NCBI GenBank assembly: GCA_903851045.1
Contig: CAINNF010000017.1
Location: forward strand, 34,353 to 98,352
Length of the DNA: 64,000 nt
Direction: 5' to 3'
Source: Candidatus Adlerbacteria bacterium
Lineage (GTDB): Bacteria; Patescibacteriota; Minisyncoccia; Phycocordibacterales; SBAW01
The translations under genes and the position numbers were made by a program. The notes beneath the pieces were generated by a model that worked only from the letters and a program-made list of their open reading frames with translations, was not told where the DNA came from and ran no database searches. Shown here piece by piece: positions 32,017 through 54,588 of this stretch. Positions within the stretch are counted from its first letter, which is position 1. Each line of letters begins with the position of its first letter.

Positions 32017-32090
32017 CCGTCATCGGACAGATGTATTGTTCGACCACATCATTTTGCAAACGCGGTATGGACGAGAGATAATTGGGTAGC

Positions 32091-32708
32091 ATGAAGCATT
32101 TCCGCATACTGCCGTCCCGGTACTCTTTTCGTTTGGTCACGAAAAAAGATTTCCCACGTTCATCCACCGTTCAACCTCGTGCCGCGCCACTGTCCGAAGT
32201 GGTCGTCGAAGCAAACGGCACCGAGGTTGATGTAAGTAAACGAATGTTCCTTAAGCTCGCGGGTCTCGCGGGTCTTGGTGTCGTGGCATCGCAGATGCTC
32301 CCCGGCAAAGCGAGTGCGTATGTGATGGGTAGCACACCAACATCTCCAGTCGTCGGACTAAAGGATTCGACGAACACGAGGATAGACCCTGCGACCGCTG
32401 CGGGTCTTGGGGTGAGTAAGGTGTCGACGTCGCTCTCGTCGTCGGGAGTCGTATATACGCCCACATCCGGCAAAAAGATACACGTGTATGCGTGCCGTTT
32501 TTCGCTGACCGCCGATGCAACCTCGGTGTCGTTTCGATTCACCTCCGGTGGGACCGATTATGAGATGTATGTGTCACCGAAGGCGGGCGGTCTCTATGGA
32601 GCGAACAACCACCCGAACTATATTGAGGGTGGGGCGAACCAAGCGCTGTACTGTGTGATATCGGGGACGACTACGGTGCAAATTAACATTGACTACCTTG
32701 AGGCATAG
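32091..32708 (+). CDS. secreted protein with Tat-like (KR) signal peptide and beta-rich domain (205 aa)
   Basis: ATG 32091. SKRMFLKLAGLAGLGVVASQMLPGKASA resembles the twin-arginine motif S-R-R-x-F-L-K with KR substitution. First gene of the island. Confidence 0.5.
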   Translation: MKHFRILPSRYSFRLVTKKDFPRSSTVQPRAAPLSEVVVEANGTEVDVSKRMFLKLAGLAGLGVVASQMLPGKASAYVMGSTPTSPVVGLKDSTNTRIDPATAAGLGVSKVSTSLSSSGVVYTPTSGKKIHVYACRFSLTADATSVSFRFTSGGTDYEMYVSPKAGGLYGANNHPNYIEGGANQALYCVISGTTTVQINIDYLEA

Positions 32709-32736
32709 TCATGTATAATCAAAGATAATATCCATT

Positions 32737-35700
32737 ATGGCCAGACGAGTAGTAGAAGAAATATTTACCGGTGCGACGGTGCCGTACACATCGTATGACT
32801 CCACGAAGATAGTCACCGGGGATCTTATCGAGCAGTACATCGGCGCGAATCCGTCCGACAAATATATTGGTCCAACTCGTGTTGGGCGTGATTCGACGGG
32901 GACCATCTATGGCATGGGTCGTCCGTTCGAGGCGACCGCCGGTGTAGCGGGCGTATTTCCCCATGTTGTCCGTTGGGCGAATAAGTCTGGATACTATACG
33001 ACCGGTACGGTCGCTGTCTCTGGTACGAGCGTCACTGGTAGCAGCACGGCATGGCTCACCAATGGCGTGCCCATCGGTGCGACCATCGGCTTTGGCACCA
33101 CCGACCCGACGCAGGTGACCACCTGGTATACCATCAACGCTATTACGTCGGATACAGCGATTACGATAGGCACTTCGGCCGGTACTATCGCGGGCGGTAC
33201 ATCCTTCGTTATCAACAAGACCTTGCAGACCGACTGGGTATTTTTGGGAGACGGTTCTGCGGCTGCGGCAACCCGCAAGATACAGCTCTATGAGTTCAAC
33301 CGAAGCACCTCTGCTTTTACTGCAAAAGGATATGCGACACTTAACTACCCCTATGCCGGCACACAGGGCACCTATGTGCTGCACGGCCTTAAGGTGTCCT
33401 ATCAACCCTATACCACGGGTACTGTCCAATCCGGCGGCATGACGCCCAATGGTGCCTATTACAGCACTGGCACCGTTGCTGTCACGACTACGGCTGTGAC
33501 AGGCACTGGTACTACGTTCACTGCCGCTATGCAGGGTATGATGATCGGGTTTGGCTCGACCAACCCAGATTCCATCGCTACGTGGTACTACATCCAGACG
33601 TTTGGTTCGACCACAGCCCTCACACTTGCGACTTCAATTGGTGCAACTGCGATACCTGCAAGTACGCCCTATGTCATAGCGACCATATACAATGTCGGTA
33701 CCGTTGCGGTATCGGGTACGGGCGTCACGGGTACCGGCACCACCTTCTCCAACACCGGTATCTACAATGTGGCAGGTATGGCCATCGGCTTTGGCTCTGT
33801 GAACCCCGGCCAGATTACCACGTGGTATACCATCCAAACATGGGGCTCGAGCACGTCACTCACACTCTCAACATCAGCAGGGAGTCTCGGCTCTGGTCTC
33901 TCATATGTAATTGTTATCATGGCAGGTACGGCGTCGGTGTCGGGCAACGCGGTCACTGGTGTTGGTTCAAGCTTCTCGACCACGACCCAGGCGGGTATGC
34001 TCATTGGTTTTGGCTCGGTCAACCCCGCTTCGATAAGTAATTGGTATGTGATTAGTGCGGTCGGATCGACGACCGCGATGACTCTGGTGACCAGTCCGGG
34101 CACGGTCGGAGCCGGTCCATATGTCATCGTTATCGGTTCGATCGTTGGTTCGGGGACTTTGTGGTCCACGAGTAGAATCGCGGTCGGTTCGCGCATAGGC
34201 TTTGGTTCGACCGACCCAACACAGATATCCACCTGGTACTACGTCAACGCTATCGACAGCGATACTATCATGAATATCCAAGCGTCCGCGACAGCGACCG
34301 GTGTCGGAGGCGCCATGGTCGCGCTCTCGCTCGCCGCGAGTACGCCGTATGTGATAGAAGATCTTAAGATAGTCACCACTGCCACGAACGGCACCACTGC
34401 CACGAACGGTGGGCTATTCGTCGCCATGGGCCTTTCCTATGGCGATTTTGTGAACAGCGGCACCACTATCTCTGCCGCAACGATGATCGACAAGATAAAA
34501 GCGAACTACTGGCTCGGTGACGCAGCCACCTCGAACAACACCACCGCGTGCGCCTGTGTTATCGACGACTTCGTCTCGTGGACGACGCAGTACCGCTACG
34601 TCATCGACGGTGCCGGCGGTACCAGCGCAAGAGTCTACAAATATAATATTCGCAGCGGTCTATCCATACCCACCAGTGGTACCAACGGTAAGGACATCAC
34701 GGCGTTCATGTTCAGCACGTTGGCCCAAACGACGGCCAACAACCTACCTGCTATCGCTGCCAACAACAGTGTCGCATGCATCGCCACGCTCAACCATGGC
34801 CCTGGCGCAGGTGTGAAATGTCTCTATTTCATGAGTATTGCAAAGATACATCGTGCCAGAATTAGCGACATTACCACCAACGCATCGACCTGGTGGACAG
34901 ACTCCATGGTCGAAATACCGACTGGCGGTGCGGCAACCTACACCGCCTCGAGCGTGCTCAACCAAATTGCCGTGGACACCCAGATAGATCGCCTCGTCAT
35001 CACCACCAGCGGTGCCGCCACGTCGCCCGCCTCGAACCGCGCGTATGTCACCCAGTACAATGCGGTCAATAGTCCGATGGATCATATGTTCTTGGTCGAA
35101 TCCAGACAGCTCGACCAGTCATCCGAAGATGGCGCGGCTGCTCCGCACCCGAGCCTCATCGCCAGTACCTTCCTGTCGCTTTGGTCAGAAGGGGGGATAA
35201 CCTATATCGCTAAGACTGGCGCTGCTGCTACGATAAGTCAGATATATGCACTGCCTCTGGGTGCTGACTGGGCGTACGCGAACGGGACGGTCAACCAACG
35301 TCTGATAACCCCGGCGCTCGCCACCACGAATGCGGTCAAACTGGTGCGTGTGTATGTGAACAGTCAACCCTTTGCGGGGAGCGCGAACGTCTCGTCTCCA
35401 GGCAACCTGACGATTCCAAGCGAACCGTACCGACTACTCTATCGAACATCTGGTATCAGTGACAACTCGGGGACATGGACGGCGCTCACCGACTATACGG
35501 GGGATCTCTCGGGAGCGACCCCGGGGTCACAGATACAATTCGCGATCGAGTTTCGTACTATCGGCACGTTCTGTATTCCTAATAGAGTCTATAATCTCGC
35601 CTGTGTGTACGAAGATAATACGACCGACAGTCACTACCAACCGTCCGCTGGCCTCTCTTCGGTCACGACCAAGACGTTCGCATGGCGCTTTGCGACCGCG

Positions 35701-35955
35701 TGGGGCGGCACGGTGCCAACCTTGCGCGTGACACTTTTCGACGCGGTGAGCGGCGCACAGCTGTTCACCGACACGACCGCAGCATCACCCTTGCTCTGGC
35801 AAAAGACGACGAGCGGTGCCGGCGGATGGGGTGCGTATGACACGAACGATCTCACCGCATCTCCGGATGCGAAGTATAGCAATACATACATCAGCTACAC
35901 GCCGACGTCCCTTGGAGACAATATTAAGGTTCGCGCTCTGCTCACACAGGCATAA
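32737..35955 (+). CDS. 1072-aa Gly/Thr/Ser/Ala-rich repeat protein, no signal peptide
   Basis: Five or more ~75-aa repeats of the form TGTVAVSGTxVTGTGTTF...IGFGSxNPxxITTWYTIQTxGSxTxLTLxTS between ~33.0 and 34.3 kb. The remainder is beta-rich low-complexity. ATG 32737 is 29 nt after the upstream gene. Confidence 0.65.
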   Translation: MARRVVEEIFTGATVPYTSYDSTKIVTGDLIEQYIGANPSDKYIGPTRVGRDSTGTIYGMGRPFEATAGVAGVFPHVVRWANKSGYYTTGTVAVSGTSVTGSSTAWLTNGVPIGATIGFGTTDPTQVTTWYTINAITSDTAITIGTSAGTIAGGTSFVINKTLQTDWVFLGDGSAAAATRKIQLYEFNRSTSAFTAKGYATLNYPYAGTQGTYVLHGLKVSYQPYTTGTVQSGGMTPNGAYYSTGTVAVTTTAVTGTGTTFTAAMQGMMIGFGSTNPDSIATWYYIQTFGSTTALTLATSIGATAIPASTPYVIATIYNVGTVAVSGTGVTGTGTTFSNTGIYNVAGMAIGFGSVNPGQITTWYTIQTWGSSTSLTLSTSAGSLGSGLSYVIVIMAGTASVSGNAVTGVGSSFSTTTQAGMLIGFGSVNPASISNWYVISAVGSTTAMTLVTSPGTVGAGPYVIVIGSIVGSGTLWSTSRIAVGSRIGFGSTDPTQISTWYYVNAIDSDTIMNIQASATATGVGGAMVALSLAASTPYVIEDLKIVTTATNGTTATNGGLFVAMGLSYGDFVNSGTTISAATMIDKIKANYWLGDAATSNNTTACACVIDDFVSWTTQYRYVIDGAGGTSARVYKYNIRSGLSIPTSGTNGKDITAFMFSTLAQTTANNLPAIAANNSVACIATLNHGPGAGVKCLYFMSIAKIHRARISDITTNASTWWTDSMVEIPTGGAATYTASSVLNQIAVDTQIDRLVITTSGAATSPASNRAYVTQYNAVNSPMDHMFLVESRQLDQSSEDGAAAPHPSLIASTFLSLWSEGGITYIAKTGAAATISQIYALPLGADWAYANGTVNQRLITPALATTNAVKLVRVYVNSQPFAGSANVSSPGNLTIPSEPYRLLYRTSGISDNSGTWTALTDYTGDLSGATPGSQIQFAIEFRTIGTFCIPNRVYNLACVYEDNTTDSHYQPSAGLSSVTTKTFAWRFATAWGGTVPTLRVTLFDAVSGAQLFTDTTAASPLLWQKTTSGAGGWGAYDTNDLTASPDAKYSNTYISYTPTSLGDNIKVRALLTQA

Positions 35956-35963
35956 TCTCGCAT

Positions 35964-36626
35964 ATGAAAGTACGCATCTATCAAGACCAACCGGTACCTG
36001 ACAGCCCAGGCATCCTCGTGTTGTCACCGACGGGGGACTATGCCCCGTTCGATTTTATCGAGTGTTACCTTGCGGGTATGCCGGGGCAGTCGTACTGTGC
36101 GCATCAAGCGCAGTTCGTTAAGTTCGGTAGCATCGTATATCGAGAGGTAGAGTATATCAATCTGCTTAACCAGCTTGGGTTAGTGAACATCCAGCCAGAA
36201 ACGCTCCAGGATATGTTGTTGAAGGACCAATCGACCATCGTGATAGACAAGGATCCACAAGACATCGTCACACCGACGGCAGTATCGGCGGTCGTGGCGG
36301 ATGTGACGGTGACCGCACCTGCGAACCAATACTCCACCACGACGGACGAGATCATTCCTCCCACGACGACCACGACCGATACGGTTGCGAGCTCGACCCA
36401 AGCTGTTTCGCTGCCCATCGATACGAGTACCACTACTCCTGTGACTATTCCCGACGCCACCTCCACGCCACCTCTGGAAGGGTTTAGCACAACGACGGTG
36501 CCGATACTTGATGCAAGCACGACCACGTCAGCCGACCCGACTGCCGCGAGCACGACAGACACGACGGCGAGCACCTCGACCGCTGCGCAAGTTCCCGCAT
36601 CCGACTCACGATTAACCGCCTTCTGA
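35964..36626 (+). CDS. hypothetical protein with Thr/Ser/Pro-rich C-terminal half (220 aa)
   Basis: ATG 35964, 9 nt after the upstream stop. The C-terminus is TTTTTD...STTTP...ASTTD low complexity. Confidence 0.5.
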   Translation: MKVRIYQDQPVPDSPGILVLSPTGDYAPFDFIECYLAGMPGQSYCAHQAQFVKFGSIVYREVEYINLLNQLGLVNIQPETLQDMLLKDQSTIVIDKDPQDIVTPTAVSAVVADVTVTAPANQYSTTTDEIIPPTTTTTDTVASSTQAVSLPIDTSTTTPVTIPDATSTPPLEGFSTTTVPILDASTTTSADPTAASTTDTTASTSTAAQVPASDSRLTAF

Positions 36627-36634
36627 TTTTGCGT

Positions 36635-36820
36635 ATGGCTCTTACCGATATCGATTTTCAAAATGGTGAGGGTCAGGATTTTATCCTTGAGTTGCCGAGT
36701 GTGGTATATAGCGGCGTATTAACCGACATACTCATCGAGCCCAGCGGGAGTCAGTTTTTTGTGCTCGAGACGGCGAAGATAGTCAACTCGGGCAACAAGA
36801 TCTTTATCATGTCCGAATAA
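36635..36820 (+). CDS. small hypothetical protein (61 aa)
   Basis: ATG 36635 (the track uses TTG 36629). Ends 6 nt before the tatC ATG. Confidence 0.35.
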   Translation: MALTDIDFQNGEGQDFILELPSVVYSGVLTDILIEPSGSQFFVLETAKIVNSGNKIFIMSE

Positions 36821-36826
36821 GTGTGT

Positions 36827-37609
36827 ATGGACCGCCTGACCGCATACGTCGAGACCTACGGAGACTACTTAGAGGACGTTCGTCGTCGTTTGTACGTGGT
36901 CGTGATCATTTTCGTGTGCATCTTCGTCGCTGGATTCTTTGCGACACCCTATTTGGTCAAGCTCATGACGAGTTTCTTGAAGATCTCGAGCGTGTCTATT
37001 GTCGCGACCGCACCCTTTCAGCTTATCGATCTGGCGATGGATGTCGGGTTCTTTTTGGCTGTCGTGTTCACGAGTCCGGTGCTTTTGTATCACATCTATC
37101 AGTTCCTTCGTCCCGGACTCCTCTACGCTGAGCGCCGCATTTTCTTTTTTCTCATACCGGTCGGGGTGGTGCTTTTCATGCTCGGCTTTACGTACGGTTT
37201 CGCCATCATGTACTGTGCGCTCGGTGCGGTGGCGATTGTTAATCAGAGTGTCGGCATCGTGAATCTTTGGGACATCAGTCTGTTCATGTCGCAGATGTTG
37301 CTCACCTCGACGCTGCTCGGTTTGTTGTTCGAATTTCCCATCATCATCAGTTTTCTTATTCGTCTCGGGGTGGTGCAAGTCGACTTTCTGCGTGCGAAAC
37401 GTCGGCATGCGATCGTGATTATCTTTTTGTTCGTTGGACTGCTGCCACCAACGGATGGTTTGTCGCTTATCCTTATGTCCGCACCGCTCGTGGCGATCTA
37501 CGAGCTTACGATTATACTTAATGCACAGCGTGTGGGGGTGGCAACCACGCGGTGCTTATCGTGTTCTTGTTCGGTGCGAAGAAGATTCCAGAGCTCACGA
37601 GCGGTGTAG
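36827..37609 (+). CDS. tatC: Sec-independent (Tat) translocase subunit TatC
   Basis: Six-TM topology with TatC-like N-terminus MDRLTAYVETYGDYLEDVRRRLYVVVIIF and C-terminal PPTDGLSLILMSAPLVAIYELTIIL. The last ~25 codons (VGVATTRCLSCSCSVRRRFQSSRAV) are probably read-through into the degenerate tatA copy, so the true C-terminus is uncertain. Confidence 0.75.
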   Translation: MDRLTAYVETYGDYLEDVRRRLYVVVIIFVCIFVAGFFATPYLVKLMTSFLKISSVSIVATAPFQLIDLAMDVGFFLAVVFTSPVLLYHIYQFLRPGLLYAERRIFFFLIPVGVVLFMLGFTYGFAIMYCALGAVAIVNQSVGIVNLWDISLFMSQMLLTSTLLGLLFEFPIIISFLIRLGVVQVDFLRAKRRHAIVIIFLFVGLLPPTDGLSLILMSAPLVAIYELTIILNAQRVGVATTRCLSCSCSVRRRFQSSRAV

Positions 37610-37692
37610 CGGACGCCATCCGTCACTTGCGCGGCGCGTTCCGGGACGAGCCAGGTGCTGACACAGTGGTCGCCACTACTAGAAAAAAATAA
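37521..37692 (+). pseudogene. degenerate tatA paralog (frameshifted / N-terminally truncated)
   Basis: Frame 1 from 37552 encodes VLIVFLFGAKKIPELTSGVADAIRHLRGAFRDE, parallel to intact TatA LIVFLFGSKKIPEFGKMFADGIRTLRSGFKDE, and shares the 22-nt stretch cttatcgtgttcttgttcgg with it. The nearest upstream ATG (37521) is in a different frame. Copy 1 is 11 nt shorter than copy 2 between ATG and the shared block. Confidence 0.4.
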
Positions 37693-37705
37693 GAACGTAC
37701 ATCGT

Positions 37706-37876
37706 ATGCCATTCGACCTCGGTGCTAAAGAACTGTTAATTATAGCCGCGCTTATCGTGTTCTTGTTCGGATCGAAGAAGATTCCCGAATTCGGGAAAAT
37801 GTTCGCTGACGGTATCCGCACCCTGCGAAGCGGCTTCAAGGACGAGGTCGCGGTACAGGCGGTAGCAAAGAAATAG
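37706..37876 (+). CDS. tatA: Sec-independent (Tat) translocase subunit TatA/E
   Basis: MPFDLGAKELLIIAALIVFLFGSKKIPEFGKMFADGIRTLRSGFKDE: TM helix, FG hinge, amphipathic helix. 56 aa. Confidence 0.8.
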   Translation: MPFDLGAKELLIIAALIVFLFGSKKIPEFGKMFADGIRTLRSGFKDEVAVQAVAKK

Positions 37877-37918: not shown

Positions 37919-40900
37919 ATGAGGATAGAAAGATTTTTCGTATTGCACATCTTGCGGCCCGCGCCAGCGTTTTTTCTCTTTCTTCTACTTTTGTGCGTCC
38001 CCGCATTATCTTTAGCAGGTAGTTATCCACAGTATCCGGCGGGCTCCGTGGTCACGATTGGCGAGTTCGTCTACAACGACGACTACTCACCAACCACCGA
38101 CAACTGCGACGTGACAGTGTATGATCCGACCAACACGAAGGTGGTGTACGCTTCGACCACCGCACGGTCGGATGGATGGCACTCCTATACATTTACTCCA
38201 GCATCTGTCTTGGGTGTATGGTCGTCCAACATCTCCTGTGGTTCGAGCGCGGGGGGCACGCTGGTACGACAAGATGAATCGTTCGTGGTAGTGAGTCCTC
38301 CTGCATTGCAGTCTGATATCCAAACTGCCTCATCTTCGATCGCTGCGGTCGTGAACGCACATACTGATGCTGCGACCGGGAACGTCACCTCAGGTGTGAA
38401 TGCGCACACTGACGTTGCGTCGTCATCTATCGGCACGATGCTGTTGTCGATACCTTTGGCGGTATGGAATATCACTGCCAGCACCTTGACCACGGTCGGC
38501 TCGATCGGTAAGCAGCTTGCGACCAATGTAGACTCGGTACTTTCGGGAATTTCAAGTGGTATCGCACTGGCCGTCAACGGTCACACCGACACGGCGCTCA
38601 ACACCGCCTCATCCTCAATCGCTGCAGTCGTCAACGGCAACACCAACACTGCAACAGCTGGCATCACTTCAGGTGTGAACAGTCACACGGATTCGCAACT
38701 TGCGCTTGCAACCTCGTCGGTTAATGCACACACCGACTCCGCGACTGCGGGCATTACTTCAGGCGTCAATGGTCACACCGACACGGCGCTCAACACGGCC
38801 TCTTCTTCAATCGCTGCGGTCGTCAACGGCAACACGAACACTGCTACAGCTGGCATCACAACTGGCGTGAACGGTCACACGGATTCGCAACTTGCGACCG
38901 CAACCTCTTCGATTGTTGCTGTTGTGAACGGTCATACTGATTCGGCCGCTGCTGGCATTACCACAGCTGTTAATGGGCACACGGACATAGCATCTTCGTC
39001 GATCGCAGCCGTCGTCAATGGTAATACAAATACACAAACGAGTGGCATCGCGTCAGCAGTTAACACTAATACTAACAATATCGTCACTGCCGCATCCTCC
39101 TCGCTTGGTAGCACTCTCGGTTCGATCGCGTCCTCCATCCTCTCGGTGCCGGCGAACGTGTGGTCCTTCACTGGCCGCACGCTCGACTCCTTTGGCTCAA
39201 TCACCGGTGATGTTGCCACCGCCGTCTGGAGTGCAGCCACACGCACCCTCACGGGAGCTTCTCTCACAACGGGTTCGCTCGCGACTCAGTCTGATGTGAA
39301 CACCGCCTCATCCTCAGTCACGACCCTCGTGAACACACACACCGACTCCGCCACTGGCGGTATCGCATCGACAGTCAATGGTCACACCGACACTGCGCTT
39401 AACTCGGCATCCTCTTCAATAGCCGCTGTGGTGAATGGCAACACGAACACTGCGACCGCGGGTATCACGTCTGGCGTCAACGGGCACACCGATACTGCGC
39501 TCAATACCGCATCCTCGTCAATCGCCGCGGTCGTCAACGGCAATACGAACACTGCGACCGCGGGTGTAACTTCAGGGGTGAACTCCCACACGGACACACA
39601 ATTGGCGCTCGCTACGTCGTCGGTCAATTCTCACACCGATACGGCGACCGCGGGTATCACGAGCGCTGTTAATGCGAACACCACGAACATAGTTACTGCG
39701 GCATCATCCTCTCTCGGTTCCACCCTTGGTTCGATTGCATCCTCAATCCTCTCGGTGCCTGCGAACGTCTGGTCCTTCACTGGTCGTACACTCGACTCCT
39801 TTGGCTCGATTACAGGAGATGTGGCGACTGCGGTCTGGGGCGCAGCGACTCGAACACTCACTGGGGCAACTCTCACTACTGGCTCGCTTGCGACTCAGTC
39901 TGACGTAAACAATGCTTCTTCGTCAGTTGCGGCAGGTGTGAATGCACATACAGACTCAGCGACCGGTGGTATTGCGTCCACAGTCAATGGACACACAGAT
40001 ACCGCACTCAATACCGCCTCGTCTTCGATTGCCGCGGTCGTCAACGGCAACACGAACACTCAAACTGCGAGTATTACCTCGGGTGTGAACGGACACACCG
40101 ACTCGCAGCTCGCTACCGCAACCTCCTCGATCGCCGCTGTGGTCAACGGTCATACTGATTCGGCCACTGCTGGCATTACCACAGCTGTTAATGCGCACAC
40201 GGACATAGCCTCTTCCTCGATCGCGGCTGTAGTGAATGGTCACACCGACTCAGCGGCCGGTGGTATCGCTGCAGCGGTCAATACCAACACCACCAACGTC
40301 GTTACTGCCGCATCCTCTTCGCTGGGATTGACGCTCGGTTCTATTGCGTCTTCGATTCTCTCAGTACCTGCGAATGTGTGGGCATACTCGGGACGTACTC
40401 TGACCTCCTTCGGCACGATTACCGGCGACGTTGCGACCGCGGTCTGGGGCGCTGCCTCGCGAACACTCACGGGAGCTACCCTTACCACCGGCTCACTCGC
40501 AACTCAGACTGACGTGAACAATGCTTCGTCCTCGGTCGTGGCTGGAGTGAATGCGCATACGGACTCTGCAACCGGCGGCGTCGCATCAACGGTTAATGGA
40601 CACACAGACACCGCACTCAATGCTGCTTCGTCTTCGATCGCTGCGGTCGTCAACGGCAACACCAACACTGCGACTGCTGGCGTAACGACCGCAATCAACG
40701 CGCACACCGACTCCGCGACCGCAGGTGTCGCTTCGGCAGTCAACACCAACACCACTAACGTCGTCACCGCTGCATCGTCATCGCTCGGCTCGACGCTCGG
40801 TTCGATCGCGTCGGCTATCGTGTCGATGCCAGCGACGATAGTGTCGAGCGTGTGGAGCGCGACGTCTCGCACGCTCACCTCACTGAGTTTGTCATCCCAG

Positions 40901-41854
40901 AGTCCATGGGTGGTATCGCTTTCAAACTCGAGCACTGTTGCAGCGGGCAGTACGTACTATGCGACCGTTACCACAACCTACAATGGTACGTTGACCGACT
41001 CGGCGAATATCCCAACGATTACCATCTATGATCCAAGCAGGAACGTGATAGTCAACGCAGGCACCATGACGCGTACCGGTGTTGGTACCTACCAGTACAC
41101 CTACCTCACCAGCGGCAGCGCGCCGGGCGGCGTATGGGAGACCGATGTCACCGCGAATGTTGCGACCGGTCAGACGCTACCTGGTACGCAGTATTGGAAC
41201 CTCACGACATCTCCCGCGCAGGTCATAGTGAATAGTGTGAGCGCGGTCACCGTGCCTACCATCGGGGCGAACATTACGATCACCAACGAAGGTCTTGGCG
41301 GATATGAATATCACTATGCGTGGTGTGTCGTCGCCGATATCAGTACGCCCTGCGATGGAAGCAGTAACGACGTATTCTACGCGAACGCGGCGAAGTTCAT
41401 AAATCCGGGCGACAGCTTTAACACCACGCTCACTGCCACCGTGCCAACACCCGGTTCGTACTACTTTAAAGTCATCGCATACTTCGGAACCGAAAGTTCC
41501 GGTGCGTCACGTCAGTTTACCGCTACGGCGGGGAGCTCGAATAACGGCGGTTCCGGTGGCTCAGGTAGTTCCGGTGGCGGCAGCTCTGGGGGCGGCGGTT
41601 CGGGTGGTGGCGGAGCTGCTGTGGTGACCGCGGTACCATCGACACCAGCAGGGCAATGCAACGGGGCTGATCTGAATGGTGATCATGTGGTTAACTATAT
41701 CGACTTTTCAGTGCTGCTGTATTTCTGGCATACGCAGCCACCATTTAGGAATCCGTGCGTCGACATCAATCAAGACGGCAAGGTCGACGCACGAGACTTC
41801 TCCATCATGCTTTCCCAGTGGAAGACCGCAGGCACACCGTTTAAAAAGAGATGA
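37919..41854 (+). CDS. 1311-aa secreted fibrous protein with ~2.5 kb of hendecad-type tandem repeats, Gly/Ser linker and C-terminal dockerin domain
   Basis: Signal peptide MRIERFFVLHILRPAPAFFLFLLLLCVPALSLA. About 840 aa of VNGHTDTALNT / ASSSIAAVVNG / NTNTATAGITSG 11-residue units. Linker SSNNGGSGGSGSSGGGSSGGGGSGGGG. Duplicated dockerin segments DLNGDHVVNYIDFSVLLYFW and DINQDGKVDARDFSIMLSQW. Confidence 0.8.
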   Translation: MRIERFFVLHILRPAPAFFLFLLLLCVPALSLAGSYPQYPAGSVVTIGEFVYNDDYSPTTDNCDVTVYDPTNTKVVYASTTARSDGWHSYTFTPASVLGVWSSNISCGSSAGGTLVRQDESFVVVSPPALQSDIQTASSSIAAVVNAHTDAATGNVTSGVNAHTDVASSSIGTMLLSIPLAVWNITASTLTTVGSIGKQLATNVDSVLSGISSGIALAVNGHTDTALNTASSSIAAVVNGNTNTATAGITSGVNSHTDSQLALATSSVNAHTDSATAGITSGVNGHTDTALNTASSSIAAVVNGNTNTATAGITTGVNGHTDSQLATATSSIVAVVNGHTDSAAAGITTAVNGHTDIASSSIAAVVNGNTNTQTSGIASAVNTNTNNIVTAASSSLGSTLGSIASSILSVPANVWSFTGRTLDSFGSITGDVATAVWSAATRTLTGASLTTGSLATQSDVNTASSSVTTLVNTHTDSATGGIASTVNGHTDTALNSASSSIAAVVNGNTNTATAGITSGVNGHTDTALNTASSSIAAVVNGNTNTATAGVTSGVNSHTDTQLALATSSVNSHTDTATAGITSAVNANTTNIVTAASSSLGSTLGSIASSILSVPANVWSFTGRTLDSFGSITGDVATAVWGAATRTLTGATLTTGSLATQSDVNNASSSVAAGVNAHTDSATGGIASTVNGHTDTALNTASSSIAAVVNGNTNTQTASITSGVNGHTDSQLATATSSIAAVVNGHTDSATAGITTAVNAHTDIASSSIAAVVNGHTDSAAGGIAAAVNTNTTNVVTAASSSLGLTLGSIASSILSVPANVWAYSGRTLTSFGTITGDVATAVWGAASRTLTGATLTTGSLATQTDVNNASSSVVAGVNAHTDSATGGVASTVNGHTDTALNAASSSIAAVVNGNTNTATAGVTTAINAHTDSATAGVASAVNTNTTNVVTAASSSLGSTLGSIASAIVSMPATIVSSVWSATSRTLTSLSLSSQSPWVVSLSNSSTVAAGSTYYATVTTTYNGTLTDSANIPTITIYDPSRNVIVNAGTMTRTGVGTYQYTYLTSGSAPGGVWETDVTANVATGQTLPGTQYWNLTTSPAQVIVNSVSAVTVPTIGANITITNEGLGGYEYHYAWCVVADISTPCDGSSNDVFYANAAKFINPGDSFNTTLTATVPTPGSYYFKVIAYFGTESSGASRQFTATAGSSNNGGSGGSGSSGGGSSGGGGSGGGGAAVVTAVPSTPAGQCNGADLNGDHVVNYIDFSVLLYFWHTQPPFRNPCVDINQDGKVDARDFSIMLSQWKTAGTPFKKR
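38320..40870 (+). repeat. near-identical in-frame tandem repeats: 33-nt (11-codon) units nested in a ~600-nt higher-order repeat, 3 full copies plus one partial
   Basis: The motif block ASSSLGSTLGSIASSILSVPANVW...TGSLATQSDVN recurs at ~39.10, 39.70, 40.31 and (truncated) 40.78 kb. The intervening NxHTDxAxxG units are repeated dozens of times. Confidence 0.8.
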
Positions 41855-42744
41855 GACACTACCGAAACATATTTTGGATCATAGCCGTGCTCACCGTACT
41901 CCCAGGTTCGGCTCATGCCGCTACCGACGTATTGACGATAGAGCCACCGATTGGCGTTGTGTCGGTTGGAGATACGGTGCTGGTGCCTGTCTACCTTTCG
42001 ACCTTGCGGAATGTGAACGCGGTGGATGGGGAAGTGAGCGTCATCGGTCCAGTGACTGTCGTCTCGAATGACACGAGCGGCTCGGTGTTGACGCTCTGGC
42101 CACTGCCGCCGTCTCTGAGTGGTAGCGCGATATCCTTCACTGGTGGTGCGGTCACCAGCTTGACCGGGGCGCATCTAAAATTATTCTCTATCGCGGTGAA
42201 GATCACTGGTGCAGGACCCATCACGTTCAAAGTACAACATGGCACCGCCTATCTGGCGGATGGACAAGGGACTCCGCTTTCACTTACGGGTGTTGCGGCA
42301 GGGGTCACGGCGGGTACGGGTGCGTCAGCACGAAACGATCTTGCGATCGAGATACAACATGACACGACTCCACCCGAGCCGTTCACTATCGACTATGGGA
42401 GAGATCCACAGGTGTACGGTGGTAACTATTTCATTAGCTTTGGAGCGGTCGACACGCTGGGTGGCATAGACCACTACGATGTCACCGAAGGGACTCTCCC
42501 ATCGGTGCGCAGCGGTGATACATACGTGCTTCAGCGCCAGGGTCAGGACGAGACGATTACAGTCACCGCATATAACAAAGCCGGCCGTGCCCGCGTATCA
42601 ACCTACACCGTCTCGGTGTCTCGTCCAGCCGGAGGGGTGGAGTGGATGTGGCTCTTGATTATACCACTGCTGTTGTTCGCTGCTGTCTCATACGTACTCT
42701 ATTGTCGAAGTACGAGACGTCGTGTGAAAAAGAGGAAGAGATAA
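41851..42744 (+). CDS. membrane-anchored cohesin-domain protein (297 aa)
   Basis: ATGA overlap with the upstream stop. Signal peptide. Cohesin-like beta-sandwich blocks (VSVGDTVLVPVYLSTLRNVNAVDGEVSV...LTLWP...ISFTGG...ITFKV). C-terminal TM (WMWLLIIPLLLFAAVSYVLY) plus basic stop-transfer tail RRRVKKRKR. Confidence 0.6.
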   Translation: MRHYRNIFWIIAVLTVLPGSAHAATDVLTIEPPIGVVSVGDTVLVPVYLSTLRNVNAVDGEVSVIGPVTVVSNDTSGSVLTLWPLPPSLSGSAISFTGGAVTSLTGAHLKLFSIAVKITGAGPITFKVQHGTAYLADGQGTPLSLTGVAAGVTAGTGASARNDLAIEIQHDTTPPEPFTIDYGRDPQVYGGNYFISFGAVDTLGGIDHYDVTEGTLPSVRSGDTYVLQRQGQDETITVTAYNKAGRARVSTYTVSVSRPAGGVEWMWLLIIPLLLFAAVSYVLYCRSTRRRVKKRKR

Positions 42745-42748
42745 TACT

Positions 42749-44278
42749 ATGTTGTGCACGTCATCTGTCAAACAAGTCACGCGCCTCTCCGTTCGCATGT
42801 TCGTGGTGTCCGTGCTCATGATGCTACTGTGCGGTCCCCACGCAGCGCGCGCAGCCACGGTGTCGTTGACGCCGATGGTGTCGTCGATCTCAGCGGGGAA
42901 CATCGTTACGGTACACGTCATGGTGAACACGCAGGGAGTTGCTATCAACGACGGGAGCGCCACGATCCAGTTCCCGACCGATCTTCTTGAGGTGGTGTCG
43001 GTTTCGAAAAGTTCATCCATTTTCTCGCTCTGGGTCGAAGAGCCAACGTTCTCCAACAGCGCCGGTACGGTGACGTTCGATGGTGGGGTACCGACGCCGG
43101 GGTATCAGGGAGGTAGTGGAGACATGCTCGATATTACCTTTCGCGCAAAAAAGACAGGTGCCGCTTCGATACTGGTTACGAACGTGAACGTGCTCGCCAA
43201 CGATGGACAAGGGACGGACGTATTCAGCGGGTCGAGCAATGACACTATCACCATCACGCCGTCAGTACCAGCCGCGCCGATCCAGACACCTGCACCCATA
43301 GCAAAGCCTGCTGCGACACCGACCGTCATACAGACCACCCCGACCGACACGACGGTGCACATCACTTCCTCGACCCATCCATCACAGACTGCCTGGTATG
43401 CGCAGAACACGGCACAGCTGGGGTTCGACCTACCCCCGAAGACCGCCGCGATCAAATTCTTGGTGAGTCAGGACCAAACGACGGTTCCGACAAAGACATA
43501 CAAGCCTGCGATCACACAAAAGTCGACCGACGCGCTCACCGACGGCACATGGTACGTCCAAGTAAGTGCACTTGCGGGCGGGGTATGGGGTCCGGTGAGC
43601 ACCTATACGCTCAATATCGATACTATGCCGCCTCGGTTGAGTATTACATCGCTCGTCTATTCGTCGGACACCAAGACTGTCACGGTCACCGGCTCAGCAC
43701 AGGACGATACCTCTGGGTTTGGGTCACTGTCGCTGGTGGTCGATGGCGTCGATGCGCGAAGTGACGTGGCGGGACTGTTGACCCAGGGGACGGTCCAGGT
43801 ACCGCTTGATGCGTCTCCGGGGCAGCATGTCGTAAAAGTACGAGCGGTCGATCGAGCGGGGAATTATATGGATTCGCAAGACTTCTACGTCATGGTACCG
43901 GCCGAACCGTACGTGCCCAAGGGCGTAGTGGCGGTCACGACGTGGTATGTCGAGACGCACGGCTCGATGGTACTGGTCGTGTTAGCGCTCTGCATCTCGT
44001 TGTTGTCGTTGATCTTCAATGTCATACTTTGGAACAAACTCCGCATCTACCGAAAACGACCACACTCCGGGGTTGTGCACATGAGAGAGCAGACGAAAGA
44101 GCGGCTTATGGACCTCAAAAAAGATCTTCACAAACAGGCAAAGCTGTACGATAAGACGGGTACCCACAAGGCGACTACGAAGGAAGAGGCTGACTACGCG
44201 AAGAAGATGCAGGCCCATATAGCCGATGTCGAACAATATGTGGACCGCAAGATACAGGACATAACGAAGCGTCCCTGA
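42749..44278 (+). CDS. membrane-anchored cohesin-domain protein with Ig-like spacer and charged cytoplasmic tail (509 aa)
   Basis: Signal peptide. Cohesin-like blocks (ISAGNIVTVHVMVNTQGVAINDGSATIQFPTDLLEVVSVSKSSSIFSLWVEEPTFSNSAGTVTFDGG). Pro/Thr linker, beta-rich middle, TM MVLVVLALCISLLSLIFNVILW, ~90-aa helical cytoplasmic tail. Confidence 0.6.
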   Translation: MLCTSSVKQVTRLSVRMFVVSVLMMLLCGPHAARAATVSLTPMVSSISAGNIVTVHVMVNTQGVAINDGSATIQFPTDLLEVVSVSKSSSIFSLWVEEPTFSNSAGTVTFDGGVPTPGYQGGSGDMLDITFRAKKTGAASILVTNVNVLANDGQGTDVFSGSSNDTITITPSVPAAPIQTPAPIAKPAATPTVIQTTPTDTTVHITSSTHPSQTAWYAQNTAQLGFDLPPKTAAIKFLVSQDQTTVPTKTYKPAITQKSTDALTDGTWYVQVSALAGGVWGPVSTYTLNIDTMPPRLSITSLVYSSDTKTVTVTGSAQDDTSGFGSLSLVVDGVDARSDVAGLLTQGTVQVPLDASPGQHVVKVRAVDRAGNYMDSQDFYVMVPAEPYVPKGVVAVTTWYVETHGSMVLVVLALCISLLSLIFNVILWNKLRIYRKRPHSGVVHMREQTKERLMDLKKDLHKQAKLYDKTGTHKATTKEEADYAKKMQAHIADVEQYVDRKIQDITKRP

Positions 44279-44338: not shown

Positions 44339-45622
44339 ATGCCAAAACCAAAAAAAGGAGTCAAAAAGGTGGTTTCCAAGACGGCCCGACCAGCACGGTC
44401 GGGCGGTGCTTCTCGTGCTGTTAAAAGTGTCGTAGCCAAGGCGAAGAAGTTTCGTGATGCGGCAGCGACTCGCCGAGTCAAACTGGCGCCTAAAAAGACG
44501 GTTGTGAAGGGTGCGAAAACCGCTACAAGTAAGGCGGCGGCTAAGGTCGCCAAGCCGACCAATGAACGCGACAAGAAGGCCGAGTCGCTCATGGCGCGTG
44601 GCCGACAGAGCGGGTTCATCACCTATGATGAAATTCTCAAAGTGTTCCCGACCATCGAGACGGACGTCAACTTCCTGGAAGAACTATACGAGAAGTTCGC
44701 CGCCGCCCATATCGACGTGCTCGAAGGCGGCGGCATGCTCGAGATCGTCGATGATGCTCCCGAGAAGGGGTACGCGCGTTCCGACTCGCAGTACGACTCG
44801 ATCCAAATGTACCTGCGCGAGATAGGGAAGTATCCACTGCTCAACGCACAATCCGAGCGCGACCTCGCGAAGCGTATCGTCGATGGTGACGAAGAGGCAC
44901 GCAACCTGCTTGCGCGCGCGAACCTGCGCCTCGTCGTCTCTATCGCCAAGAAGTATGTCGGTCGTAGCCCTGACCTGACACTGCTCGACCTCATCCAAGA
45001 GGGCAACCTTGGCCTCTTCAAGGCAGTCGACAAATTTGATTACACCAAGGGATACAAGTTCTCGACCTACGCGACGTGGTGGATCCGCCAAGCTATCACC
45101 CGTGCGCTCGCCGACCAGTCGCGCACCATCCGCATCCCTGTCCACATGGTGGAGACCATTGCGAAGTACAAGCAAGTCTCGCGTCGCCTCTCCCAAGACC
45201 TCGGCCGCGACCCACTTGCCGAGGAGATCGCGCTCGAAATGGGTGTCGATGTCGACAAGATATACCAGATCGAGAAGATCGACCAAGACACCGTGTCGCT
45301 CGAAAGCCCAGTGGGCGACGAGAGCGAAGATGGCAAGTCAGTCTTGGGCGACTTCATCAAAGACGATAAGATTCTCTCGCCCGACCAAGAGGTCTCCCGC
45401 CGTATCCTCGCCGACCAGCTCAAAGAGATCCTCGACGAACTCAGCCCGAAAGAGCGCGAGATCCTCAAACTCCGCCACGGGCTGGAGGACGGCATCTACC
45501 ACACGCTGGAAGAGGTTGGCAAAAAGTTCGGCGTCACCCGCGAACGCATCCGCCAAATCGAAGCCAAGGCTTTAGAGCGCATCCGCACCCACGACAAAGC
45601 AAAACGACTACGGAGCTATTAG
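44339..45622 (+). CDS. rpoD: RNA polymerase primary sigma factor (sigma-70) with ~80-aa Lys/Ala-rich N-terminal tail
   Basis: Regions 1.2-4 ([84 protein letters not shown]). N-terminus [23 protein letters not shown]...[41 protein letters not shown]. Confidence 0.9.
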
Positions 45623-45798: not shown

Positions 45799-46203
45799 TT
45801 AGGGGTTCAAATCAGGAAAGCACACGCCTATGACGGCCTTTGTGAGCGCGCGAAAAACGTCCTTGTCCATAGTTGCAATTTTTACGGTCAATCGTTTGCG
45901 ATCCACGAATCGAATCTGTGATAAGACGGCTACCGCGTCTCTCCCGGATACTGCTCCTACGGAGAAGTAATATTTTCCTTCCTTTGGTCTGGCTGTCAGT
46001 GGAACAATAAGACAAGTGTCGAGATTGAATTTTGATAGTATGACGACAGGTCGAGTAAACAATTCACTTCCACCATCTTGTTCGTAGCCAACATTGGTGC
46101 CAAGTGTGCACCACCACACCTCTCGCTCATGAAAGAGGGCAGTTCCTTTTGTGTTGTTAATTTCCTCTTTCTTCGTATGCCATCGCCAAAAGTCTTTTTT
46201 CAT
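45799..46203 (-). CDS. MazF/PemK-family endoribonuclease toxin, no adjacent antitoxin found
   Basis: FHEREVWWCTLGTNVGYEQDGGSELFTRPVVILS and LDTCLIVPLTARPK parallel MazF GDLIWVDFDPTKGSEQAGHRPAVVLS...GMCLCVPCTTQSK. Start taken at ATG (complement 46201-46203). A GTG 18 nt upstream is also possible. AT-richer patch. Confidence 0.6.
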   Translation of the reverse strand: MKKDFWRWHTKKEEINNTKGTALFHEREVWWCTLGTNVGYEQDGGSELFTRPVVILSKFNLDTCLIVPLTARPKEGKYYFSVGAVSGRDAVAVLSQIRFVDRKRLTVKIATMDKDVFRALTKAVIGVCFPDLNP

Positions 46204-46255
46204 TTTGGGAGAGCTTACCACCAGTCAGAATTTTATCAACGGCCACCTATTTAGA

Positions 46256-47933: not shown

Positions 47934-49505
47934 TTACATATCCCCGCCGGTGTAGGAGAGACTAAAGCTTTTGTTGATGAGCGGGAAGTCGGGCACCACG
48001 TTGCCTTTTCCAGCGTAGCCGACGCACGGCCAGTTAAGGAGCGACGGGTCGCGCATATCGACGCGTGAGATTGAGCCGGTCGAGTCGGTGGCGACGAGAC
48101 ACACCATGTCACCACGCCAGCCTTCGGTGATCGAAACGGCGAAGGCGTTCTTCGGTAGTACGGGTGGCTGTAGTTTCGCGATACTATCGCTGGGGAGCGC
48201 TTCGAGCGCCTGGAGGATCAGGTCGATGGACGTATAGACCTCTTCGATGCGTACCGTGAAGCGGGCTTCGACATCGCCTTCTTGTGCGCCCGCCATGGTG
48301 AAGCGAAGCGACTCGTACGCTGCGTACGGGTACTGCGCGCGTGCGTCGTTCTGTATGCCTACGGCTCGACCGGCCACACCGGTACACCCATGGTCTCGCG
48401 CGATCTTCGGGTCGAGGATGCCGGTATCCTTCAGACGATTGATGAGCGAGCTGGAGTCCGCGGCTATCGCCATAACTTCGGCGAAGTCGGTGCGCAGCTC
48501 CACAAGCTCTTCGCTCAACGTGTGTGCAGCCTCTTTCGAAAGATCCTTGGTGACACCGCCGATCGTGTTCACGCCCCGGAGGAACCGACTACCGGTCAGG
48601 CGGTCACAGATACGCATGACACGCTCGCGCAAGCGTGCGCCTTGCGCACCTCCGAAGTTGAACCCGGTGTCGGTCATGATTGCCCCGATGTCACTGAAGT
48701 GATTCGCCAATCGTTCGAGCTCGGAGTAGACGACGCGTAGGTGTTTTGCTCGGGCGGGTACGACGATGTTCATGAGCGTCTCGACCGCCTGGCAGAATGC
48801 GAGCGAATAGGTAAAGGACGAATCGCCGGCGATGCGCTCGGAGAGCTGCACCTTCTTCTCCAAAGGCAGCGTCTCGAACAATTTTTCGGTCCCTTTGTGC
48901 GAGTAACCGAGTCTTGGTTCGAGGTTCAGTATCTCTTCGCCCGCAAGGTGGAAGCGGAAGTGCCCTGGCTCGATGATACCCGCGTGGACCGGTCCTACAG
49001 GCAGTTCGTAGATACCTTCTTCTCCGCCGATATGTGCGAATGAGAATGGTGTATCGGTGTCGGTCATCGGTGGGCGCTCGTTCCAAAGGAACTTCTTTCT
49101 TAGTGGGTATGTTCCCTTTGGCCAGTTGTCATGCAGGATGATCGAGCGCGGGTGCGGGTGTCCCGTTGGCGAGAGACCGAAGAGCGAGTTGATCTTTCGC
49201 TCATACAAGCTCGCCTCGTGGATGGAAGGTGTAAGCGAGGGGAACTCGCTCACGGTCTGGAGCGATAAGGTGATGAACTTGTGCGCCTGGGGGATACCGA
49301 ACACATACAGTATGCGATAGAGGCCGCCGTCCCGTGTCTCGTCGAGCGCGGTGATCATCTTCAGCGGCAATCGGTGTGCACGATACAGACCGTTCGCCAA
49401 GGCCACGAGGTCCGCAGCTTTGACCGGGACGATGATGCAGTTGCCCGAGATGCTGACCTCGGTATGCTCTGGCAGATATTTTTGTATAAGATGTTTGGTG
49501 TCCAT
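47934..49505 (-). CDS. fused NuoC-NuoD-like subunit (HycE/EhrL-like) lacking NiFe-binding cysteines
   Basis: VGPVHAGIIEPGHFRF and GYSHKGTEKL NuoD/large-subunit signatures. The ~140-aa N-terminus resembles the NuoC/30-kDa fold. No RxCGxC or DPCxxC NiFe ligands. Confidence 0.75.
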   Translation of the reverse strand: MDTKHLIQKYLPEHTEVSISGNCIIVPVKAADLVALANGLYRAHRLPLKMITALDETRDGGLYRILYVFGIPQAHKFITLSLQTVSEFPSLTPSIHEASLYERKINSLFGLSPTGHPHPRSIILHDNWPKGTYPLRKKFLWNERPPMTDTDTPFSFAHIGGEEGIYELPVGPVHAGIIEPGHFRFHLAGEEILNLEPRLGYSHKGTEKLFETLPLEKKVQLSERIAGDSSFTYSLAFCQAVETLMNIVVPARAKHLRVVYSELERLANHFSDIGAIMTDTGFNFGGAQGARLRERVMRICDRLTGSRFLRGVNTIGGVTKDLSKEAAHTLSEELVELRTDFAEVMAIAADSSSLINRLKDTGILDPKIARDHGCTGVAGRAVGIQNDARAQYPYAAYESLRFTMAGAQEGDVEARFTVRIEEVYTSIDLILQALEALPSDSIAKLQPPVLPKNAFAVSITEGWRGDMVCLVATDSTGSISRVDMRDPSLLNWPCVGYAGKGNVVPDFPLINKSFSLSYTGGDM

Positions 49506-49511
49506 AGTTTT

Positions 49512-50954: not shown

Positions 50955-51610
50955 AGTGTTGTATCAGAAAGATTTTTCATCAAGGTGACGTCGAGCGAGC
51001 CGAACTGTCGATACAGCATCGAGATGAAGACGGTCGCGATAGCGACCCATACCAGGATGTCGAAGGTGATACCGAGCTCTAGTGCCGGACTTTGTTCGAG
51101 TCCGGTGAAGAGTGCGAACGCGACGATGCTGTTCTCGACCGAGAGGATGCCGAGCATCTGCGAGAGTGCGCCTTTCTTGTTGACGAGCAGGAAGAGCGAG
51201 ATGAAGAATGATGCTAGTGAAAGGAGCACGAGCGTCGGACTTTCGGGACTAAGGTTCGCGAGCGGCGCGAAGTAGTGGCTAAAGCTCAGTGCCACGATGA
51301 GCGCGAGCACCAGCAAGGTTTCGGGGCTACTCAGGTAGGTGGTGCTCGAGAAACGGAGCTGATTGCGGCGCACAAGACGCGCGAGGAAGTATGGCGCTAG
51401 GATGACCTTCACCGCAGCGGTGACCACGATGGCGATGATCGCGATCGTGGAGAAATCGCCGGCACCGGTAAGCAGTATCGCGATGGCGCCCGACTGGAGC
51501 GCATACAGCGAAATGGCGGTCCGATTCTTCTTCACGAGGTGTTGTAATACGCTCGACATGAACACGATGACGCCGAGGATGAGGATCAGTTGTGGTGCGA
51601 TGAGTGACAT
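50951..51610 (-). CDS. HyfE/EhrC-like small membrane subunit
   Basis: Start re-placed at ATG (complement 51608-51610), MSLIAPQLILILGVIVF. About 220 aa with 6-7 TM helices. The track N-terminal extension overlaps the upstream gene and is spurious. Confidence 0.55.
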   Translation of the reverse strand: MSLIAPQLILILGVIVFMSSVLQHLVKKNRTAISLYALQSGAIAILLTGAGDFSTIAIIAIVVTAAVKVILAPYFLARLVRRNQLRFSSTTYLSSPETLLVLALIVALSFSHYFAPLANLSPESPTLVLLSLASFFISLFLLVNKKGALSQMLGILSVENSIVAFALFTGLEQSPALELGITFDILVWVAIATVFISMLYRQFGSLDVTLMKNLSDTTL

Positions 51611-51615
51611 ACGGT

Positions 51616-52542: not shown

Positions 52543-52545
52543 ACG

Positions 52546-54585: not shown

Positions 54586-54588
54586 ACG

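Follow-up and report, generated by a model that had tools for sequence, protein, structure and literature searches.

A putative cohesin-dockerin anchoring module for a cell-surface fibre in Patescibacteria

Gene layout and domain structure

We analysed a 64,000-nt stretch of the Candidatus Adlerbacteria bacterium assembly GCA_903851045.1 (contig CAINNF010000017.1, positions 34,353 to 98,352; hereafter, the window) and describe three adjacent genes within it that may together fasten a fibre to the surface of this ultra-small bacterium. Gene 1 encodes D, a 1311-aa fibre protein with a C-terminal dockerin, and the following two encode the cohesin proteins C-short (P2, 297 aa) and C-long (P3, 509 aa). 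All three open reading frames (ORFs) lie on the forward strand at the positions given by the original prediction, which had been made from the DNA letters. The features of the trio are listed below with the evidence for each, including AlphaFold2 (AF2) models with their confidence (predicted local distance difference test, pLDDT), family hidden Markov models (HMMs), and matches to immunoglobulin (Ig)-like domains and single-chain variable fragments (scFv).

37919..41854, + strand: D, secreted dockerin-tipped fibre protein, 1311 aa (ORF, homologues)
38018..38293, + strand: N-terminal beta-sandwich "head" of D, residues 34-125, carrying the motif GEFVYxDD and a pair of conserved Cys (AF2 pLDDT 80-93, all-beta; kept across D orthologues)
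38309..40888, + strand: repetitive stalk of D, residues ~131-990 (motif spacing, autocorrelation, hydrophobic spectrum, AF2)
40901..41518, + strand: two C-terminal MG2/FN3-like beta-sandwich domains of D, residues 995-1200 (AF2 pLDDT ~90, Foldseek)
41531..41614, + strand: Gly/Ser-rich flexible linker of D, residues 1205-1232 (sequence; PDB sequence matches are scFv linkers only)
41654..41827, + strand: dockerin of D, residues 1246-1303, DLNGDHVVNYID-FSVLLYFW ... DINQDGKVDARD-FSIMLSQW, with conserved Cys on the flanks (Pfam, alignment, family HMM)
41851..42744, + strand: C-short, 297-aa type I membrane protein (ORF, homology, hhalign)
41920..42315, + strand: cohesin domain of C-short (family HMM, distant homologues, hhalign)
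42749..44278, + strand: C-long, 509-aa type I membrane protein (ORF, AF2, Foldseek)
42854..43258, + strand: cohesin domain of C-long, residues 36-170 (AF2 pLDDT 85-98 beta-sandwich, Foldseek)
43358..43894, + strand: two Ig-like spacers of C-long, residues 204-290 and 296-382, Big_13/DUF7743-like (Pfam, AF2)
43949..44275, + strand: C-long transmembrane segment (~residues 401-428), then a helical cytoplasmic tail of 81 residues (AF2 helices 406-473 and 478-507; tail sequence conserved)

The stop codon of D and the start codon of C-short overlap as ATGA, C-long begins 4 nt past the C-short stop, and purine-rich stretches precede the starts of both anchor genes. These junctions, as tight as had been predicted, suggest translational coupling of the three genes. 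In the public gene calls on identical contigs (lake metagenome-assembled genome GCA_903951275.1), D starts at a GTG at position 38048 and is 1268 aa long. We kept the ATG at 37919 because the signal peptide (residues 1-33, a hydrophobic N-terminus ending ...ALSLA/GS) is encoded only from that codon; the public start drops it, which is why the protein collection lacks the exact 1311-aa product. Promoter and terminator scans returned nothing informative.

The dockerin of D is well supported. Pfam Dockerin_1 (PF00404) matched residues 1251-1297 with 27.9 bits (cut-off, 22.9), and the dockerin-family HMM built here matched the domain with an E value of 3e-32. It consists of two tandem ~22-residue segments, in each of which a 12-residue EF-hand-like Ca loop (D1, N/D3, D5, D12) leads into a helix. 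Across the loci compared, the dockerin is internally symmetric (45-80% identity between the halves). In phmmer alignments with the solved type I dockerins 2y3n_B, 6kg9 and 1daq/2mte from the PDB, both D-x-N-x-D...D Ca loops are in register with the Ca-binding residues present, in agreement with the canonical duplicated dockerin that had been claimed. Nearly all of the 25 D homologues found carry a PF00404 dockerin (scores among homologues, 34.9 and 47.4 bits), and the Ca-loop pattern is kept in the 66 loci from which the consensus DFNGDGKVNSVDFSILLYFWKTKPPFKNPCVDINKDGKVDSVDFSILLYQW was derived. A phmmer search of D against the PDB returned scFv Gly/Ser linkers alone, spurious matches explained by the Gly/Ser linker that precedes the dockerin.

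The AF2 monomer model of D, built with 25 homologues, has a confident N-terminal head, two confident C-terminal beta-sandwiches and long core helices at low pLDDT. Foldseek matched the C-terminal pair to RbmA and to the MG domains of TEP1 and alpha2-macroglobulin, and homologues of D bear the MG2 family PF01835. A phage tail-fibre origin of D is unsupported, the PHROGs scan having given no meaningful match.

The stalk between these regions is made of 15- and 19-residue units, with the consensus sequences VNGHTDtATAGITSg and VNGHTDTALNTASSSIAAV, and copies of its VN[GA][HN]T[DN] motif lie 15 (22 cases) or 19 residues (8 cases) apart. The units are grouped in a 203-residue super-repeat (59% self-identity) and split by ~70-residue "VW..RTLT" connectors. 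Sequence autocorrelation reached 0.59, 0.28 and 0.23 at lags of 203, 34 and 15, respectively, with lag 11 (0.14) near the background of ~0.10. The dominant peak in the hydrophobicity spectrum is at 3.75 residues in every stalk repeat block, and a peak at 3.72-3.82 is also present in 18 orthologous D proteins of other species. Strongly right-handed coiled coils of the pentadecad type have a period of 15/4 = 3.75 (PMC4786415), and the nonadecad equivalent is 19/5 = 3.8. The stalk thus fits a predicted pentadecad/nonadecad right-handed coiled coil. The original prediction had described 11-residue units; a hendecad stalk (11/3, 3.67 residues per turn) is rejected on the unit lengths and the hydrophobic period, whereas its reading of a right-handed, non-heptad coiled coil holds. 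The core positions of the 15-mer would be V1, H/N4-T5, A8 and I12, giving polar layers as in trimeric autotransporter adhesin (TAA) stalks. Such polar-core stalks are often predicted as disordered (PMC4786415, PMC13580157), and the low pLDDT of the D stalk is in keeping with this. The stalk length is estimated at roughly 100 nm, assuming ~635 helical residues at 0.15 nm each.

Both anchors have the signal peptide and C-terminal transmembrane segment that had been predicted. In C-short, the signal peptide is followed by the cohesin (~residues 24-155), one Ig-like domain (DTTPPEPF...), a transmembrane segment at residues 267-285 and a 12-residue basic tail. C-long has a signal peptide, a cohesin, a Pro/Thr linker, two Ig-like domains, a transmembrane segment and a conserved cytoplasmic helix, the last predicted earlier at ~90 aa and found to span 81 residues.

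The cohesin assignment comes from fold for C-long and from homology for C-short. In the AF2 model of C-long built with its homologue alignment (mean pLDDT, 85), residues 36-170 superimpose on the nine-stranded jelly-roll of solved cohesins. The best Foldseek match in the PDB is the cohesin-FN3 module 2w1n (E value, 2.6e-12), roughly half of the 50 best matches are cohesins, and type I, type II and non-cellulosomal/archaeal cohesins (1g1k, 2vn5/6, 5nrm, 4dh2, 2jh2, 2xdh) matched with a probability of 1.0 and target-normalised TM-scores of 0.70-0.75. Pfam Cohesin (PF00963) was matched by 15 of the 48 aligned C-long homologues (best E value, 2.8e-8). For C-short, the C-long-family cohesin HMM matched residues 22-142 (E value, 1.7e-10), the two proteins align at 28% identity (E value, 4e-7), hhalign of the two families gave 100% probability, and PF00963 is present in most of the distant C-short homologues (E values of 9e-16 and weaker). 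Both domains thus fall within the cohesin fold family, and judging from these alignments C-short is a truncated paralogue of C-long, without the middle Ig domain and the cytoplasmic helix. An NCBIfam scan of the two anchors gave no cohesin match, and phmmer against PDB sequences returned no cohesin, only the Ig-like adhesin SiiE and noise. Strands 5, 6 and 8 belong to the dockerin-binding face in solved cohesin complexes (8-3-6-5 sheet), and the conserved C-long motifs SIFSLWVEEP, GTIxFxGG and ANDGxGTD fall on these three strands.

Cohesin and dockerin are the signature modules of cellulosomes, and both are in use here, as would be expected of a minimal cellulosome-like display of enzymes for polysaccharide degradation. 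We consider this explanation hardly credible and reject it because the trio contains no enzymes: Pfam, NCBIfam, PHROGs and fold searches found no catalytic or carbohydrate-binding domain in D. Each anchor also carries one cohesin, there is no scaffoldin, and D is the single dockerin gene at the locus and in the whole window.

Distribution and co-variation across species

Rather than an isolated case, the trio represents a large conserved family within a bigger cluster linked to twin-arginine translocation (Tat). Relatives of C-long are encoded on at least 568 stretches of the one-genome-per-species collection, and an exhaustive HMMER search gave 1352 clusters (50% identity) at E ≤ 1e-30. We fetched 80 species loci and scanned them using the cohesin and dockerin HMMs built here. 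D, C-short and C-long are contiguous on one strand and in this order in 62 loci by HMM, and a motif-positive dockerin ORF directly upstream in L041, L044, L072 and L077 brings the total to at least 66 of the 80. The rest are mostly contig edges or belong to a separate class with a lone C-long gene. The gene order is retained despite sequence divergence to 30-40% identity. Loci with the trio are mostly from named Parcubacteria lineages, and the named relatives are Patescibacteria, the lineages including Adler-, Kaiser-, Nomura-, Taylor-, Zambryski-, Wolfe-, Niyogi-, Wildermuth-, Gribaldo-, Doudna- and Falkowbacteria. With at least 66 other species sharing it, the trio probably represents a means of fastening appendages to the cell that is used throughout the lineage.

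The topology of the anchors is conserved as well, with a transmembrane segment and a ~9-residue tail in all 64 short anchors and a transmembrane segment followed by a longer tail (median, 82 residues) in 63 of 64 long anchors. Extra tandem cohesin genes (two or three in a row) were seen at L024, L044 and L049. The lone C-long genes, with no dockerin or C-short neighbour, are at L009, L025, L056, L067, L073, L076, L079 and L082.

The dockerin and the cohesins are conserved, while the dockerin-tipped cargo varies from ~470 to >3300 aa and falls into two compositional classes. Members of the first have the GEFVYDDD head and a Ser/Thr/Ala-rich stalk with a period of 3.72-3.82 (473-2140 aa). Those of the second are >3000 aa, run off the locus edge, contain 22-29% Gly and lack the 3.75 periodicity. 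These giants were found at L010, L021, L022, L023, L027, L029, L035 and L058, upstream of both cohesin genes, where C-short is often ~200 aa.

The dockerin is the most conserved part of D (mean pairwise distance, 0.39), and together with the long cohesin it is the most conserved segment of the system. Distances between dockerins correlated with those of both cohesins (r ~0.40) more than with those of the adjacent Ig region (r = 0.30). Once the effect of the adjacent Ig region was removed, the partial correlation of dockerin and cohesins was 0.30 (permutation p = 0.001), and the reverse partial was 0.08.

These patterns bear on the possibility that adjacency reflects co-regulation only, with the dockerin-like tail binding Ca or glycan and targeting a host surface, peptidoglycan or another protein, and the cohesin-like domains binding a different ligand. 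Non-cellulosomal dockerin-like and cohesin-like modules reportedly often have no known partners (a point attributed to Peer et al. in 2009), and both anchors score below Pfam Cohesin. An essential dockerin-domain envelope protein of Southlakia, for which glycan targeting has been proposed, also has no adjoining cohesin gene (PMC10633639). However, the order of the trio is kept in at least 66 of 80 species at 30-40% identity, the dockerin and the long cohesin are both the most conserved and the co-varying segments, and the conserved cohesin motifs map to the dockerin-binding face. We therefore regard co-regulation without binding as improbable.

Proposed anchoring of a cell-surface fibre

Given these domain assignments and the conserved gene order, we conclude, with a probability of roughly 0.72, that the trio is dedicated to anchoring a cell-surface fibre by means of a non-cellulosomal cohesin-dockerin pair and is conserved in Patescibacteria, mainly in Parcubacteria/Paceibacteria. 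The non-cellulosomal display proposed in the original prediction is supported strongly by the trio order in at least 66 of the 80 species, by a cargo without a catalytic domain and by the co-variation of dockerin and cohesins.

In the proposed mechanism, D would be exported via Sec, and its Ser/Thr/Ala/Asn-rich core, made of pentadecad and nonadecad units, would fold into a long right-handed coiled coil of alpha-helices, probably a trimer, whose interior has polar His/Asn-Thr layers. The N-terminal beta-sandwich head would be distal, with the two Ig-like domains, the Gly/Ser tether and the Ca-binding dockerin at the proximal C-terminus. C-short and C-long would each hold out a single cohesin atop a spacer of one or two Ig domains, plausibly reaching through the wall, and the dockerin would plug non-covalently into these cohesins so that the fibre is fastened to the membrane. 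The ~80-residue cytoplasmic helix of C-long could oligomerise the anchors or couple them to the cell interior. The oligomeric state and the stoichiometry of fibre and anchors are likewise putative. Taken together, the system would combine a constant membrane socket (C-short and C-long) with a variable plug-in appendage (D) whose head is held outward by a stalk. A constant anchor with a hypervariable cargo suggests that the likely role is to display an adhesive or contact appendage at the surface, serving the host-dependent lifestyle of these bacteria.

Several points weigh against this reading. Pfam Cohesin did not match C-short or C-long themselves at E ≤ 1, and a full-length family profile matched no cohesin in the PDB by sequence. 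The stalk model has low confidence (pLDDT 30-75), because of which helicity is argued mainly from the periodicity, and the 3.75 peak is also a harmonic of the 15-residue sequence repeat, an objection weakened by the peak being dominant and recurring in divergent orthologues. A lone C-long gene without an adjoining dockerin gene occurs in 8 of the 80 loci, and the mirror-tree signal of co-variation is of modest size, and differences in rate can inflate it. Finally, we infer the physical binding of dockerin and cohesin from the sequences, and a role in host attachment is purely conjectural.

The main rival accepts the same components and anchoring, and makes them an envelope scaffold instead, namely an S-layer or canopy on coiled-coil stalks, with the D heads as the lattice and the cohesin anchors as membrane posts. 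In tetrabrachion-type archaeal S-layers, a canopy is held off the membrane by coiled-coil stalks, and the predicted right-handed stalk of D resembles those of S-layers. Tetrabrachion has been mentioned among the stalks of crenarchaeal surface proteins (PMC13580157). A core envelope function is also suggested by the near-universal conservation of the trio and by its location among housekeeping genes (dnaG and rpoD on either side in the window, with tatC/tatA adjoining), and the N-terminal head of D is conserved across species. On the other hand, the more than seven-fold range of cargo length between species and the second, Gly-rich cargo class are more adhesin-like than lattice-like, and no lattice-forming domain was recognised in D by Pfam or fold search. 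We consider the scaffold unlikely and rank an adhesion or host-contact fibre as the most likely role of the trio.

Neighbouring genes, related systems and implications

The window order around the trio is dnaG, X, Y, Z, s, tatC, tatA, D, C-short, C-long and rpoD. The genes upstream of D are as follows.

32082..36820, + strand: X (208 aa), Y (1072 aa), Z (220 aa) and s (~61 aa) (synteny)
36821..37876, + strand: tatC and tatA, immediately upstream of D (Pfam TatC 1.2e-39, TatA 1.2e-8)

TatC precedes D in 27 species loci, and the order X-Y-Z-s-TatC-D-C-short-C-long was found complete or nearly so in about a dozen species. The X-Y-Z-s-tatC-tatA cluster also occurs at L006, L008, L015, L019, L028, L032, L047, L062, L072, L074 and L077. 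In X, a long N-terminal extension precedes a canonical twin-arginine signal (SKRMFLKLAGLAGLG in the window; RRLFLK in others). Y has no signal peptide, contains ~70-residue "GFGSxNPxxIxxWYxI" repeats and is 800-1070 aa long across species, and s is acidic and 60 aa long. Pfam matched none of these four proteins, Y had no PDB match, and Y and Z had no PHROG match. Possibly, the cluster encodes a Tat "hitch-hiker" export set. D is not a candidate Tat substrate: the signal peptides of D, C-short and C-long are of the Sec type with no twin-arginine motif, and the RR motif is on the upstream X. From the shared gene order, both tatC/tatA and X, Y, Z and s may be functionally linked to the trio. At L031, L043, L045, L065 and L075, Y, Z and TatC are absent, and an enlarged X-like gene (250-390 aa, with repeated "FLPNTDSFLL") adjoins D on the opposite strand. 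As an X-like gene remains by D at such loci, X may be the neighbour most tightly tied to the trio.

Classically, dnaG and rpoD are adjacent in the macromolecular-synthesis operon. In the window they are ~12 kb apart (30382-32016 and 44339-45622, respectively), with the X-Y-Z-s-tatCA-D-C-short-C-long cluster between them. Other genes of the window include a fused rpoB-rpoC (a 2280-aa ORF at 22459-29301 on the + strand, with all RpoB domains in residues 19-1046 followed by all RpoC domains in 1065-2165) and a MazF/PemK-type toxin gene just downstream of rpoD (45799-46221, - strand). A membrane cluster resembling complex I or group-4 [NiFe]-hydrogenases lies at 47934-55140 (- strand), with a fused NuoC-NuoD-like subunit (523 aa), two antiporter-like subunits, and NuoH-like and NuoB-like subunits; this is unusual metabolic equipment for a Patescibacterium.

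A more ambitious picture, which is possible though doubtful, makes the trio the core of an unrecognised, near-universal envelope apparatus of Parcubacteria. A trimeric polar-core fibre would have its three near-symmetric dockerins clamped by two different membrane cohesins, possibly one per dockerin face, and the cytoplasmic helix of C-long would relay or organise contact from within the cell. The apparatus would act with X-Y-Z-s-TatC/TatA, in which X bears the twin-arginine signal and the signal-less Y could hitch-hike, and it would be the main host-holding device of these episymbionts.

Cohesin and dockerin are known modules with non-cellulosomal cases, and the trio arrangement itself is undescribed in the searchable literature; full-text searches found no description of it in the candidate phyla radiation (CPR)/Patescibacteria. 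Among the closest parallels are the anchoring scaffoldins of cellulosomes (C. thermocellum SdbA/OlpB/OlpC; R. flavefaciens ScaE), in which a cell-bound cohesin captures the C-terminal dockerin of a secreted protein, and the OlpC cohesin (4dh2) matches the C-long fold at a TM-score of 0.70-0.74. Unlike those Firmicutes proteins, which are held by S-layer homology (SLH) domains or a sortase signal, the patescibacterial anchors use a C-terminal transmembrane segment (plus a cytoplasmic helix in C-long), with one cohesin per protein, a non-enzymatic coiled-coil cargo and a fixed, operon-like set of three genes. Cohesins outside cellulose degradation are also known from C. perfringens GH84C (the cohesin-FN3 module 2w1n) and Archaeoglobus fulgidus (2xdh, TM-score 0.73), but these modules occur in enzymes, toxins or proteins without a known membrane anchor, and not beside a conserved dockerin fibre with two transmembrane cohesin genes.

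The stalk of D is similar to those of TAAs (YadA, and adhesins of Shiga toxin-producing Escherichia coli with pentadecad/hendecad units) in being part of a long surface fibre with a non-heptad, right-handed 15/4 = 3.75 periodicity and polar core layers. D itself has no 12-stranded YadA beta-barrel anchor and ends in Ig-like domains, a linker and the dockerin; there is also no outer membrane, and attachment by the dockerin is proposed to be non-covalent. Pfam and PDB phmmer searches detected no sequence homology of D to TAAs. The nearest literature mention of a trio-like system is the Southlakia protein noted above, SEML1_0315 of the saccharibacterium Southlakia epibionticum, which by its domain description is a patescibacterial envelope protein with a dockerin and Ig-like domains and was scored essential by transposon sequencing (of three columns, two ES and one GD; PMC10633639). 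Unlike D, it is flanked by an alpha/beta hydrolase gene and a tRNA gene, with no cohesin genes.

The trio holds considerable interest for CPR cell biologists. Patescibacteria/CPR account for a sizeable part of bacterial diversity, and a life attached to other cells is presumed for most of them. To our knowledge, their attachment hardware is largely unknown except for type IV pili. Three conserved genes that are easy to recognise together, and a proposed mechanism that is clear and cheap to test (Ca-dependent binding of dockerin and cohesin), would make the trio a handle on CPR surface biology. It would extend the cohesin-dockerin pair to a role undescribed in the searchable literature, the tethering of structural fibres to the cytoplasmic membrane by transmembrane-anchored single cohesins, and its constant anchor with swappable cargo could serve as a natural display scaffold.

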